In this document: piece after piece, positions 21,001 to 24,000 of the stretch
Layout: each line of letters opens with the position of its first letter
Position numbering within the stretch: the first letter of the stretch is position 1
DNA from: a plasmid
Assembly (NCBI RefSeq): GCF_054482525.1
Contig: NZ_JBTHVG010000006.1
DNA length: 36,373 bases
Direction: 5' to 3' (one strand)
Made by a program: the position numbers

Positions 21001-24000
21001 AACCTGGTCAGACTCCAGCAATACATGAACAAAAAGTTCAAAATGACGGCACAAAAAACGCTGGATATTACGCAACAATTACGTGAAAAATATAAAGCGA
21101 TTACTTATAACCGCTCTGATTGCTCATATCTTTCTGATGAACAATTCAGCGAAGCGCCGCAGGTTATCGATGCCCTGAAATCAATCTTTCCTCAGTCGCT
21201 GGATATTGATTCTTCACGTAAAAGCAAAGCGTTTAACAGTGCAAAGGTGACTGCGCATACTGCGATAATCCCGACCGCCAGTGTGCCTGATGTTAACGCA
21301 CTCAGCACCGACGAGCGCAATGTTTACCTGGCGATCGCACAACACTATCTTGTTCAGTTCATGCCTGAAAAAGCATACCAGGAAGTATCGGTTGCCATTC
21401 AGTGTGGTGATGAGTCGTTCTATGCCCGTGCCAGAAAAACAACTGACAGCGGATTTGAGGCGTTTCTTGGCGCGGAAACCACAGATGAAGGTGAATCAGA
21501 AGATAATGATGATTCCGCTTTTGAACTGCTCTGTAAAATTCGCACAGGAGAAACACTGACGACAAAAGAAGTTATTGTTAATGAGAAGAAAACAACACCG
21601 CCGCCGTTATTCACCGAAGCCTCCTTGCTTGCTGCGCTTGTTCGTGTCGCGGATTTTGTCACTGATCCAACAATTAAAAAATTGTTGAAGGATAAGGATA
21701 AAGACAAAAAAGATGAACATGGTGGCATTGGTACGCCAGCTACCCGCGCAGCCATTCTGGAAACGCTGAAGAAAAGAAACTATATCACGCTGGAAAAAGG
21801 GAAACTTATTCCTACTGATACCGGATATGCGCTTATTGATGCCCTGCCTGGTATAGCGGTTAATCCTGATATGACAGCATTATGGTCTGAAAAGCAGGCT
21901 GCCATAGAAAATGGCGACCTGACGATTGAACGGTTTATTAATGATCTGTACTGTGAACTAACAGACATGATTTCTGATGTTGACCTGGGCGAGATGAAGA
22001 TTGAACCCGCTGCGCCAGCAGGGCAGTTTCAACGCCTGGACTCTCCCTGCCCTTCCTGTGGTAAACATATTGTTATCAGGCCGAAAGGTTATTTCTGTAC
22101 CGGATGTGAATTTAAAATCTGGAGTGAGTTTTCTGGTAAGAAAATCACCCAGGCACAGGCCGAAAAACTGGTTAAATCAGGGAAAACCGATTTGATTAAG
22201 GGATTTAAAAAGAAAAGTGGTGGAACGTATGATACAGTTCTTGTCCTTGAGGATAAGAAAACAGGGAAACTGGGTTTTCCGGCAAGGGCTAAGAAGTGAA
22301 AACAAAGCAGGAATGGCTTTTTCAGTTAAGAAAATGTACATCAAGAGATACTCTTGAAAAAGTTATTGAGATTAACCGTTACAAACTGCCTTTATCAGAA
22401 TCGGAGGCATTTTATTCTGCCGCAGATCATCGCCGAGCAGAACTGGTGATGAATAAACTTTATGATAAGGTGCCTTCCGGCGTCTGGAAGTACGTACACT
22501 AAATAAGAGGATTAATTATATGAGCGAACTGACTAAAGAAGATGAATACGGCATTATCAGCCGTACTATGATGAATATTCGTTCATTGCGTGTTTTTGCC
22601 CGTGAAGTTGATTTTGAGCAATTGCTCGAAATGCAGGAAAAACTGAACGTTGTTGTTGAAGAACGTCGTGAAGAGGCTGAACGTGAAGCGGCTGAACGCC
22701 AGGAACTTGAAGCCAAACGTCAGCAGGCCATTGAATACATCATATCTTTAGGTCTTGATCCCGAATCACTCCTTGCTCCTGTAACAGCAGATACAGTAAA
22801 AACCAGGCGGAAAGCCAAAGGCGGAGTAAGAAAGGCTAAATACCGCTTTAAGGATGAAAATGGCGAGATCAGAGAATGGTCTGGTAATGGCAAGCGTCCG
22901 CTTGCTTTACAGAAGCTGCTTGATGAGGGGCATTTCATGGAAGATTTCCTCATTGAGAAGACTAAGCCGGAACAGGCAGAATAACCCGCCAGGTATACAT
23001 CACACAGACATACACATAGGTATGTCTGTGTGACATACCTATGTACAGTGCCAGATGGCGTTGCTACGTGAAAAATAACCTACCCTACCCCTGCTTTTTT
23101 CGCAGATTTTACGTAGCACACCGTTGCTATAGCCTTCATCTAAAAAGCTGAATGTCCTTTTCTGTCGCTGTTGCATTTTAATTCACTGAAAAATATTGAG
23201 TAATGAAAATGCCGGTAACGCGTCAAGCTGTTGGCCAACGCGACAGGCAGTATTGGAAGCAACAAAAAAATGAAAGAAAAATCCCTCAAATGAAGGAGAA
23301 AAAACGGAACTACAGCCGAACGACAGACACAAAAAAACCCGACTGGTAATCGGGCTTTTTTGCGTTTTCCAGTCTTGAGTTGGTGGCTCTGACCGGAGAA
23401 GGTTACTCTACACCTAACGTTTACATTTTATTCACTATGGTGCTGTAAAGCAACTAAATGTGGTTAAGGAACCACATTTAGTTGTGTAACGGGTGTTTTG
23501 TGTAGCGTATAATCAGTCAGTTAGTCATGTAGTTGGCTTGCAATCCTGCTGTTCCCGTATCTGCGGGTATGAACGATTTTAAAGTCCTGGCTGGATAAAC
23601 AGGTGGTGCTGTATTCGGTGCTCTGGCAGGAGGAGGTCACTCTACACCTAACAATGCGAGAGAGCCGTTGTGACAGGCAGTGTATGAGCAAGCAACGGTG
23701 ATTTCCTCCAGTTTTACTGGAGAAACGGATGATTAATATGTTAATCATCGTTCTCAGAGCTGTGGTCGCCGTTGCAAACGCGCTGATTGCAGTTCTGGAA
23801 CTGATCCGCCAGTTCATCGATTGATGACAACGGAAACGTAACTAAGGGCAGGAAGTGAACCGCTTCCTGCCCTTTAACAAAAAAGGAGGATTTATGGATT
23901 TTATGAGCATTTTGGGGCGCTGTTTACTTCTTCCTTTCCCTGTTGCGATGTTTGTCGGTTGCCTGTTTCCTGGCATCGATGATCGCTTATCCGGAATGCT

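Follow-up and report, generated by a model that had tools for sequence, protein, structure and literature searches.

Does the 31-residue hydrophobic reading frame in the long hns-parA intergenic region of an IncX4 plasmid encode a functional type I toxin, and where does its antitoxin lie? The question arises from a sequence-only reading of the window, by which we mean the whole stretch of 36,373 nucleotides analysed here (contig NZ_JBTHVG010000006.1 of RefSeq assembly GCF_054482525.1). That reading had proposed a toxin-like locus with a hairpin-sequestered Shine-Dalgarno (SD) sequence and had described the ORF as unannotated.

Identity and spread of the locus

The window represents an IncX4 plasmid of the mcr-1 type. 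DNA that is 100% identical is annotated as dqlB in the IncX4 plasmid pKP4823_mcr, and the ORF itself is present in RefSeq as "DinQ-like type I toxin DqlB" (WP_021534057.1), so that its description as unannotated has to be withdrawn. Homologues of dqlB occur in at least 5000 plasmid records. The IncX4 records, about 300 in number, have an overall identity of at least 99%; hence, conservation within IncX4 says little. We consider it highly probable that this locus, lying between hns and parA, is the dqlB/agrB type I toxin-antitoxin module of the IncX4 plasmid, acting through post-segregational killing.

The DqlB family was defined in 2016, and a toxic, AgrB-neutralised addiction module was demonstrated on IncL and IncX3 plasmids in 2025. 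The system is therefore already known and annotated, and no new biology is claimed here for the toxin. Searches of the accessible literature returned no experiments on the IncX4 copy of dqlB. The copy is of practical relevance, as IncX4 plasmids are a main vehicle of mcr-1 colistin resistance, and an addiction module would help explain their persistence without selection.

The toxin peptide

The coding sequence was found where it had been proposed:

23729..23824, plus strand: dqlB coding sequence, a 31-aa single-helix hydrophobic toxin (NF041473 match, RefSeq annotation, pN/pS)

Its translation, MINMLIIVLRAVVAVANALIAVLELIRQFID*, matches the NCBIfam model of DqlB (NF041473) over residues 1-31 of 31, with 70.6 bits against a cutoff of 35 (E = 7e-20). 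The equivalog model of DinQ (NF041472) reached 25.2 bits over residues 18-30 only, under its cutoff of 30; the shared core reads LIAVLELIR here and LIALLELIR in K-12 DinQ. No NCBIfam Hok match was obtained for the peptide, and the PADLOC defence models matched neither DqlB nor the 59-aa ORF that follows it. The predicted single hydrophobic membrane helix agrees with the hydropathy of the peptide (GRAVY 1.81; best 19-residue window 2.67). Across 13 lineages, the peptide displayed a pN/pS of 0.19 with a pS of 0.41, indicative of purifying selection. The arrangement of the ORF, the SD hairpin, and the 3' stem-loop is beyond chance.

The AgrB antitoxin and its target

The sequence-only reading had held that no antisense RNA could be assigned. 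Such a gene can be assigned through Rfam, and it is divergent from dqlB, with 312 nt between the 5' end of AgrB and the dqlB ATG:

23329..23417, minus strand: agrB, antitoxin small RNA of about 89 nt (Rfam RF02891, 58.7 bits, gathering threshold 40, full model 1-84)
23425..23453, minus strand: predicted agrB promoter, with -35 TTGCTT (23453..23448), a 17-nt spacer, and -10 TAAAAT (23430..23425); predicted transcription start site (TSS) 23417
23620..23652, plus strand: AgrB target in the dqlB 5' UTR, complementary to the AgrB 5' end and containing element 2 (23625-23639)

The gene escapes the eye within the coordinates first given because it does not overlap dqlB in cis but is located roughly 100 nt upstream of the dqlB promoter. 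AgrB is the sole Rfam match at gathering level in the whole 36-kb window. The sok and hok models of Rfam returned no matches even up to an E of 10. The 5' part of AgrB, which does the targeting, is single-stranded; an internal stem-loop and an intrinsic terminator (stem 23354..23338 followed by U7) complete the RNA, which folds with a z-score of -5.5. The positions of the promoter hexamers are kept as TTGCxx/TAnnAT in 13 homologous loci, K-12 agrA included. By Rfam, 11 of the other 14 loci likewise carry an AgrB gene upstream of the toxin gene in divergent orientation. Meanwhile, the antitoxins of IncN and IncL/M plasmids, on which the Rfam model does not reach the E < 0.01 that it reaches on IncX4, were located via complementarity (-64 kcal/mol).

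The target is a direct repeat of 33 nt of positions 23386-23418, with 29/33 positions (88%) identical, and its pairing with AgrB comprises 29 Watson-Crick pairs, 2 G-U pairs, and 2 mismatches. The predicted duplex spans 33-36 nt at -113..-77 from the ATG, with an energy of -56.1 kcal/mol. The target occupies the same position in 15 other loci, the 3' end of the cognate duplex being fixed at -72 to -80 from the ATG, and AgrB and its target co-vary across 16 pairs. For AgrB of IncFIB- and IncX5-type loci, the duplexes predicted with the IncX4 UTR equal or exceed the cognate one in strength; if such RNAs repressed IncX4 dqlB, plasmids sharing a cell could disarm one another's addiction. Among the points against the assignment as a dqlB/agrB module is that AgrA of K-12, a mismatched paralogue, is inactive, and the IncX4 duplex also contains 2 mismatches and 2 G-U pairs. 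Its energy, however, is near that of K-12 AgrB (-59.9 kcal/mol) and not that of AgrA (-44.4 kcal/mol).

Two further candidates in this region were rejected. For a cis-antisense RNA over the 3' end of dqlB, the minus strand offered the hairpin and a promoter-like site (23926..23898), but promoter-like hits numbered 4 against 2.9 expected, which is the level of chance, and the sequence beyond the dqlB 3' hairpin is not conserved. A 48-aa ORF at 23203..23349 had no family match; as it overlaps the agrB terminator, it was treated as spurious.

Predicted promoter and structure of the toxin mRNA

The dqlB transcript and its structural elements were delimited as follows:

23508..23520, plus strand: predicted dqlB promoter, -10 TATAAT (23508-23513) and TSS G23520 (conservation; dinQ alignment)
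23535..23550, plus strand: element 1, a putative 5' "lock" able to pair with element 2 (local duplex -18.1 kcal/mol, present in the full-length minimum free energy (MFE) structure)
23699..23713, plus strand: element 3, pairing with element 2 (SD open) or element 4 (SD closed)
23706..23722, plus strand: SD-sequestering hairpin (3:4), GGAG at 23719-23722, 6 nt before the ATG (RNAfold pairing probability about 1)
23728..23749, plus strand: start-codon hairpin GAUGAUUAA-uaug-UUAAUCAUC, whose 5' arm holds the AUG (in the MFE structure, pairing probability about 1)
23844..23874, plus strand: 3' stem-loop/putative terminator of the dqlB mRNA, 12 bp with a 7-nt loop, followed by UUUAAC (conservation)

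The -10 element is conserved in an alignment of 16 loci, and G23520 aligns with the mapped +1 of K-12 dinQ. No recognisable -35 hexamer accompanies this perfect -10, and the poor -35 explains why the promoter was absent from the list of a consensus scan. Likewise, the 3' hairpin lacks a proper U tract, as TTTAAC follows it. Both the poor -35 and the UUU-only tract count against the dqlB/agrB reading; they are common to IncX4 dqlB and K-12 dinQ.

The predicted 358-nt mRNA folds with a z-score of -7.2 relative to shuffled sequences. Over 16 homologues, the SD, start-codon, and terminator helices were 92% paired, with compensatory changes at 11 pairs, while slid controls reached 36-60%. The SD hairpin is present as the sequence-only reading had drawn it (CTCCAGTTTTACTGGAG, a 7-bp stem with a 3-nt loop and the GGAG in the 3' arm). 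It is homologous to hairpin 3:4 of the experimentally probed dinQ mRNA (PMC5066626) and displays compensatory changes at 5 of its 7 pairs (CCAG/CUGG, CCAU/AUGG, CCCUU/AAGGG). Pairing in the start-codon hairpin reached 98% over the 16 loci; in the dinQ rows, an A-U pair is replaced by G-C through a double change. The 3' stem-loop proved real but larger than proposed, with 12 bp rather than 10 bp (AAGGGCAGGAAG/CTTCCTGCCCTT, 23844-23855 with 23863-23874); it is kept from K-12 dinQ through all dqlB loci, and 5 of its 12 pairs show compensatory changes. The original proposal of a type I toxin with a hairpin-sequestered SD, made from the letters of the DNA, is thus supported by the DqlB family match, the homology to dinQ hairpin 3:4, the AgrB gene, and the experiments on homologues.

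The K-12 dinQ mRNA that was probed experimentally (PMC5066626) has counterparts of all four elements, of the +1 site, and of the AgrB target. Over 16 loci, the alternative 2:3 pairing was 80% paired, and both sides were changed in 22 cells; none of 500 shuffles reached this value, and slid controls gave 43-64%. The 2:3 duplex has an energy of -18.2 kcal/mol, as compared with -9.8 kcal/mol for the SD hairpin. For the 1:2 pairing, poor alignment of the 5' 40 nt left column-wise covariation at the level of controls. Energies computed sequence by sequence lent the pairing moderate support in the family but none specific to IncX4, whose own 5' end ranked 9/16, no better than non-cognate ends; these results count against the dqlB/agrB reading.

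Nearest-neighbour folding kept the SD of 5'-truncated IncX4 RNA closed (P(unpaired) about 0, MFE structure unchanged in this respect), a further point against. The test is weak, since in the validated K-12 +44 RNA, used as a control, the SD opened only from 0.06 to 0.27; we therefore used energy differences between constrained folds. By this measure, 5' truncation made the open state cheaper, its cost falling from 7.5 to 4.0 kcal/mol in IncX4 and from 10.4 to 3.1 kcal/mol in the validated K-12 control.

A perfect 15-bp palindrome (23451-23484) is centred between the divergent agrB and dqlB promoters. The window holds no second copy of it, a search with up to 3 mismatches gave hits at chance level, and close relatives show no compensatory changes in it.

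Proposed mechanism

By analogy with the dinQ and dqlB experiments in the literature, we postulate the following sequence of events. In its full length of about 355 nt, from a start near 23520, the dqlB mRNA would be translationally inert because its SD is held in the hairpin at 23706-23722. Processing at the 5' end would remove element 1 and free element 2, which may then pair with element 3 and expose the SD. AgrB would bind 23620-23652 and cover element 2, so that the SD hairpin re-forms, and the duplex would be cleaved by RNase III. As long as the plasmid is present, the supply of AgrB would keep DqlB off. Upon plasmid loss, AgrB synthesis would stop, and the remaining dqlB mRNA would be translated provided that AgrB decays faster than the mRNA, an assumption borrowed from other type I addiction modules. 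The peptide would insert into the inner membrane and kill or arrest the cured cell, thereby stabilising the plasmid.

Alternative explanations

The module may extend further downstream. An ORF for a 59-aa membrane protein (23894-24073) starts 66-69 nt past the dqlB stop with a strong AAGGAGG SD in 8/8 contexts examined, which cover IncX4, IncX1, IncHI2, IncI-gamma, IncR, and IncFIB backbones. It is possible, though unlikely, that this ORF is co-transcribed with dqlB by read-through and forms a third part of the module, in which it would work together with DqlB as an additional toxin, modulator, or immunity factor. Such a role is suggested by its constant linkage and spacing in all eight contexts, by a gap too short for a separate promoter, and by the canonical terminator of relatives (GGCCGC-GTAA-GCGGCC followed by T6), which comes only after the 59-aa ORF; the ORF is also found in 713 plasmid records and has a pN/pS of 0.35. 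However, most dqlB lineages (IncI1, IncK, IncL/M, IncN, IncX3, IncX5) do without it, and at least two of them work in this state. The ORF matches no Pfam, NCBIfam, or PADLOC family, is not called by PGAP in IncX4 records, and suffered a 60-nt in-frame deletion in one lineage. Moreover, its first ~95 nt are nucleotide-identical between lineages, so that this part is uninformative on coding and provides no independent evidence for it. For the one sub-lineage concerned (IncX4, IncX1, IncHI2, and some IncI-gamma, IncR, and IncFIB plasmids), we put forward, as a conjecture that is rather improbable, a two-gene toxin transcript: read-through of the U-poor hairpin would reach a 59-aa product that modulates or adds to DqlB, and the palindrome at 23451-23484 would serve as an operator that makes the toxin/antitoxin ratio depend on a regulator of the plasmid or the host.

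Could the IncX4 copy instead be a decayed or silenced remnant, passively carried and no longer able to kill owing to a weak promoter and a permanently closed SD? The -35 element is indeed absent, the SD hairpin is stronger in IncX4 (-9.8 kcal/mol) than in K-12 (-5.6 kcal/mol) and stays closed in every truncation modelled, and the near-identity of the roughly 300 IncX4 records (at least 99%) makes their conservation of little help. Nevertheless, the locus retains, in intact form, the ORF, the SD, the AUG, the hexamers of the AgrB promoter, the AgrB terminator, and the 33 nt of complementarity. Purifying selection on the peptide is visible between lineages, where the helices keep pairing via compensatory changes, and the same -10 is invariant in loci shown to be functional (IncX3, IncL/M). 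We thus regard a remnant as very unlikely.

Similarly, the locus could be an orthologue of dinQ, that is, a LexA-controlled, damage-inducible modulator of the membrane rather than a plasmid addiction module. Its peptide core, 5' UTR, and AgrB are clearly homologous to K-12 dinQ/agrB. In addition, a study of an IncI1 plasmid (PMC12211044) lists, 119 nt ahead of dqlB, a LexA-like site that is weak (heterology index 11.6), and the homologous site here is at 23587-23602 (CTGGCTGGATAAACAG). Yet this site has a mismatch and a GC-rich spacer, and its position (+68..+83) falls inside the transcribed UTR, within a conserved RNA stem, while the promoter region (23420-23520) has no CTGT-N8-ACAG match with one mismatch or fewer. 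LexA/SOS control was accordingly rejected, as the pattern search found no box at the promoter and the lone one-mismatch site within the UTR coincides with the conserved stem. The peptide also scores 25.2 on the DinQ model, below the cutoff of 30, versus 70.6 on that of DqlB, the window contains a single agr gene and no agrA/agrB pair, and the plasmid homologues act as addiction modules. These observations make a dinQ-type function highly improbable.

Finally, the idea of a chance ORF in a structured non-coding region, or of a real gene in the opposite-strand 98-aa ORF at 23521..23817, has next to no probability: short ORFs abound (66 with 20 aa or more overlap 22000-26000), but this idea is already refuted by the family match (E = 7e-20), by the pN/pS of 0.19 at a pS of 0.41, and by the shrinkage of the minus-strand ORF, which is not conserved and is down to 8-78 aa in 11 homologous loci.

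Relation to characterised systems

The dqlB/agrB reading places the IncX4 locus within a family founded by dinQ/agrA/agrB of E. coli K-12 (PMC3567139, PMC5066626). DinQ depolarises the membrane and lowers ATP (PMC3567139). The two loci share a homologous peptide core, elements 1-4 of the 5' UTR, an AgrB target in the same place, and a 3' stem-loop followed by UUUAAC. In contrast to the IncX4 peptide, which falls below the cutoff of the DinQ model, DinQ has 27 aa and a GTG start and lacks the AVVAVANA insert. The K-12 locus also differs in being chromosomal (arsR-gor) and LexA-regulated, with two agr genes and a proposed role in the SOS response, not in plasmid maintenance.

A comparable layout occurs in tisB/istR-1 of E. 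coli, as PMC3567139 notes: the antitoxin gene is divergent and does not overlap the toxin gene, and its target is the 5' UTR of a toxin mRNA that has been processed and is competent for translation. Its peptide and RNA are unrelated to dqlB/agrB; the system is chromosomal and under LexA control, and IstR-1 does not switch an SD hairpin but blocks a ribosome standby site.

The hok/sok system of plasmid R1 works in a similar way: it is a type I addiction module carried by a plasmid, its toxin is small and membrane-directed, its full-length mRNA stays inert until processing activates it, and its antisense RNA is unstable. The Sok RNA overlaps the leader of hok in cis and operates via the mok frame, and activation takes place by 3' trimming. 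The IncX4 antitoxin, by contrast, is encoded apart and would act in trans on the 5' UTR, with activation proposed to follow 5' processing, and hok/sok has no sequence or Rfam relationship to IncX4 dqlB/agrB. The comparison of hok/sok with dqlB/agrB was also drawn in PMC12365149.

By backbone, the closest relative tested in experiments is the agrB-dqlB locus of the IncX3 plasmid pOXA-484, which was shown to be toxic when AgrB is missing and to stabilise a test plasmid (PMC12317039). A representative IncX3 DqlB is identical to that of IncX4 at 27/31 residues (87%). There is likewise one AgrB gene and no agrA, and the distance from the AgrB 5' end to the ATG is 308 nt, as compared with 312 nt in IncX4. 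The differences reside in the AgrB seed (UCAGUUGUAGAGAG), with non-cognate duplexes about 20-28 kcal/mol weaker than the IncX4 cognate in either direction, in the SD hairpin (CUCCAU/AUGGAG), and in the absence of a downstream 59-aa ORF.

On the IncL plasmid pOXA-48, DqlB is toxic, AgrB neutralises it via base pairing, as established with mismatch and compensatory mutants, and the toxin kills after plasmid curing (PMC12365149). In a pOXA-48-like locus (L012), DqlB also has 31 aa, of which 25 (81%) are shared with the IncX4 peptide. Its antisense RNA, encoded upstream in divergent orientation, pairs with some 35 nt of the 5' UTR, as far from the ATG as in IncX4, and the -10, SD hairpin, AUG hairpin, and 3' stem-loop are the same as in IncX4. 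Meanwhile, the neighbourhood differs (repA-trbC versus hns-parA in IncX4), as does the response to the Rfam AgrB model, which reaches E < 0.01 on the IncX4 antitoxin and not on that of IncL/M. The targeting sequences are unrelated, UUAGGUGUAGAGU... in IncX4 versus CGUCAAUUGUUUAGG... in L012, which makes cross-protection unlikely. The 5' end of the IncX4 AgrB (23417..23385) offers a handle for curing, by which AgrB would be supplied in trans during plasmid destruction, an approach already used for pOXA-48.

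A DqlB/AgrB locus between hns and parA

The 31-aa open reading frame described by the sequence-only reading is present just as described (23729-23824, plus strand; product MINMLIIVLRAVVAVANALIAVLELIRQFID). It had been taken for unannotated, but RefSeq carries it for this very sequence as "dqlB: DinQ-like type I toxin DqlB" (WP_021534057.1). Comparison with known type I toxin families, proposed in that reading as a check, gave a full-length match to NCBIfam NF041473 (DinQ_rel; 70.6 bits, curated cutoff 35), and the DinQ model scored 25.2 bits, under its cutoff of 30. Annotation and family match thus make the ORF a member of a named family with no unannotated novelty. 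Systems of this kind have been described before and validated by experiment in sister plasmids, and RefSeq already annotates the present one. The 900 bases around dqlB are identical (100%) to pKP4823_mcr, an IncX4 mcr-1 plasmid, and some 300 plasmid records match them at 99% identity or more. Across 13 lineages the gene displayed coding constraint (pN 0.079, pS 0.41, ratio 0.19). A 98-aa ORF on the opposite strand was rejected, as it showed no conservation across homologous loci.

The locus is DqlB/AgrB rather than DinQ, given the absence of a LexA box at the dqlB promoter (CTGT-N8-ACAG, up to one mismatch), the single agr gene in the window against two in dinQ, and a peptide of 31 aa against 27. 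The only one-mismatch CTGT-N8-ACAG site (23587-23602) is within the UTR, as part of a conserved RNA stem; a paper on an IncI1 plasmid lists that same site as a weak SOS-box candidate (PMC12211044).

The antitoxin AgrB and its target

Antitoxin features
23417..23329, minus strand: agrB, Rfam RF02891 (58.7 bits, gathering threshold 40)
23453..23448 (TTGCTT), 17-nt spacer, 23430..23425 (TAAAAT), minus strand: predicted agrB promoter, hexamers upstream of the AgrB 5′ end

The sequence-only reading could assign no antisense RNA, yet AgrB was the sole match above the gathering threshold in an Rfam scan of the 36-kb window. It displays an unstructured 5′ region, an internal stem-loop and a strong intrinsic terminator (fold z-score −5.5), and both promoter hexamer positions are kept in 13 homologous loci. 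A 33-nt direct repeat links antitoxin and target (23386-23418 versus 23620-23652, 29/33 identical): the AgrB 5′ end corresponds to its reverse complement and is predicted to pair over 33-36 nt with the dqlB 5′ UTR (2 mismatches and 2 G-U pairs, −56.1 kcal/mol). The AgrB match, together with this repeat and duplex, identifies agrB as a trans-acting, separately encoded, divergent antitoxin gene, which supports and completes the type I toxin interpretation. It lies outside the interval first described, upstream of the dqlB promoter by roughly 100 nt, which explains why it went unseen.

The AgrB terminator stem (23338-23354) has A7 on one flank and T6 on the other; it can also be read as a plus-strand intrinsic terminator and could stop transcripts from the hha-hns side. 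Between the divergent agrB and dqlB starts is centred a perfect 15-bp inverted repeat (23451-23484, CAACTAAATGTGGTT aagg AACCACATTTAGTTG; about −34 to −67 and −36 to −69), which may be an operator. Close relatives retain it with a single mismatch in an arm; the window has no second copy, and different, unrelated palindromes occupy the matching spot in the IncHI2 and IncX5 loci.

Co-variation of antitoxin and target across plasmids

We fetched 14 further plasmid loci (IncFIB, IncHI2, IncX1, IncX3, IncX5, IncI-gamma, IncK2, IncN and IncL/M, plus plasmid dinQ) and the K-12 dinQ-agrAB locus. In 11 of these plasmid loci Rfam found AgrB upstream in divergent orientation; the IncN and IncL/M antitoxins were located by complementarity (−64 kcal/mol), and the record of the remaining locus begins within that locus. 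The distance from the end of the AgrB-UTR duplex to the start codon was 72-80 nt in all cases. The pairing sequences themselves vary by lineage (e.g., UUAGGUGUAGAGU, UCAGUUGUAGAGAG, UUAGUUGAAAAGAG, UUAGAUACAGACUG and UUAGAUAAGAACU), and as a rule the cognate pair has the most favourable predicted duplex energy. Since partner and target co-vary at a fixed position, this is strong sequence-based evidence that the pairing is functional.

Against the IncX4 dqlB UTR (23541-23652), the AgrB of an IncFIB locus (L002) and of an IncX5 locus (L006) gave −62.7 and −58.7 kcal/mol, compared with −56.1 for its own AgrB, and that of K-12 paired poorly (−35.0). From these predicted energies, certain AgrB RNAs of IncFIB and IncX5 origin could match or exceed the cognate AgrB in repressing the IncX4 toxin. 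Cross-neutralisation between co-resident plasmids is thus possible, and the IncX4 module may be insulated from the chromosomal dinQ system.

Some plasmids carry a tandem duplication with two complete agrB-dqlB units, one DqlB being shortened to 27 aa, and others have, further upstream, an additional AgrB-like gene whose pairing with the resident dqlB UTR is poor. These regions are L005:811-1306 and 1473-1962, L018:95-834, L002:690-895 and L010:306-698, an arrangement reminiscent of the K-12 agrA/agrB pair.

Structure of the dqlB mRNA

Features of the dqlB transcript (all plus strand)
23508-23513: −10 element TATAAT, invariant in the alignment of 16 toxin transcripts
~23535-23550: element 1, mapped from the dinQ model
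23625-23639: element 2, likewise mapped, within the AgrB target
23699-23713: element 3, likewise mapped
23716-23722: element 4 (SD arm), likewise mapped
23706-23722: SD hairpin, CTCCAGT-TTT-ACTGGAG
23728-23749: start-codon hairpin, paired across homologues
23844-23874: 3′ stem-loop after the stop codon, 12 bp

Alignment makes G23520 the counterpart of the mapped K-12 dinQ +1, which predicts a 358-nt mRNA (23520-23877; fold z-score −7.2). The SD hairpin reported by the sequence-only reading was borne out, with GGAG (23719-23722) in its 3′ arm and the ATG 6 nt on; the stem-loop after the stop is also present, with 12 bp instead of the 10 described. Using the four-element dinQ mRNA model (PMC5066626) as template, the SD hairpin corresponds to "hairpin 3:4". 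In the 16 sequences, the SD hairpin, start-codon hairpin and 3′ stem-loop were 92% paired (slid controls 36-60%), with compensatory changes at 11 pairs. The alternative 2:3 pairing, which would open the SD, reached 80% paired, and in 22 cells both sides had changed (0/500 shuffles as high; slid controls 43-64%). For the 1:2 lock, a column-by-column test across the alignment gave no support and a per-sequence test only moderate support, IncX4 ranking 9 of 16. Thermodynamic folding kept the SD of the truncated IncX4 RNA closed, in a test that barely opens the validated K-12 +44 RNA (0.06 to 0.27). The cost of the open form after 5′ truncation fell from 7.5 to 4.0 kcal/mol in IncX4 and from 10.4 to 3.1 in K-12.

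Proposed mechanism and function

The module parts and their conserved pairings were obtained here; the steps of the mechanism we infer from experiments on dinQ and dqlB. Full-length dqlB mRNA would be inert because its SD is sequestered. Processing at the 5′ end would release element 2 for pairing with element 3, exposing the SD, whereas AgrB would cover element 2, restoring the SD hairpin and leaving the duplex to be cut by RNase III (PMC5066626). The peptide would enter the inner membrane, with depolarisation and lower ATP as a result (PMC3567139).

Plasmid copies of the module serve as addiction systems, which probably holds for IncX4 as well. DqlB of pOXA-48 is toxic, AgrB neutralises it through base pairing (mismatch and compensatory mutants), and after plasmid curing DqlB kills cells that receive no AgrB (PMC12365149). 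The locus of the IncX3 plasmid pOXA-484 stabilised a test plasmid and was toxic when AgrB was absent (PMC12317039). IncX4 DqlB is 81% identical to the fetched pOXA-48-like (IncL/M) representative and 87% to the IncX3 one, and in the pOXA-48 paper 53% of IncX plasmids carried a dqlB homologue (PMC12365149). No experiment with a copy from IncX4 turned up in our literature search.

A second ORF and flanking repeats

ORF2 and its homologues
23894-24073, plus strand: ORF2, 59-aa hydrophobic product (MDFMSILGRCLLLPFPVAMFVGCLFPGIDDR...), strong SD AAGGAGG at 23883-23889
L003:1385-1564, L014:1184-1363 and L017/L018/L020:901-1080: homologues in other loci

ORF2 starts 66-69 nt past the dqlB stop in all eight contexts examined (six backbones), one of which has an in-frame 60-nt deletion. 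It occurs in 713 plasmid records, goes unannotated in RefSeq entries for IncX4 and had no family match in Pfam, NCBIfam or PADLOC. It directly follows the dqlB 3′ hairpin, which is without a good U tract, and in relatives a canonical terminator stands after ORF2, not after dqlB. The two genes may be co-transcribed as a bicistron; the evidence is no more than suggestive, since the first ~95 nt of ORF2 are nucleotide-identical between lineages.

The agrB-dqlB-ORF2 block lies entirely between two sets of GTGACATAC-containing repeats (23000-23044 and 24338-24478), with one palindromic copy directly past the hns-like gene and three, spaced by 50 nt, immediately upstream of parA (24487). They resemble a partition-type centromere or operator. 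A C-rich segment is flanked by an inverted repeat with 19-nt arms (24096-24114 / 24221-24239; 95% complementary, separated by 106 nt), a possible site for resolution or recombination; the left arm of this repeat, TTAGTTACAACATT, is common to IncX1 loci, where a resolvase gene adjoins.
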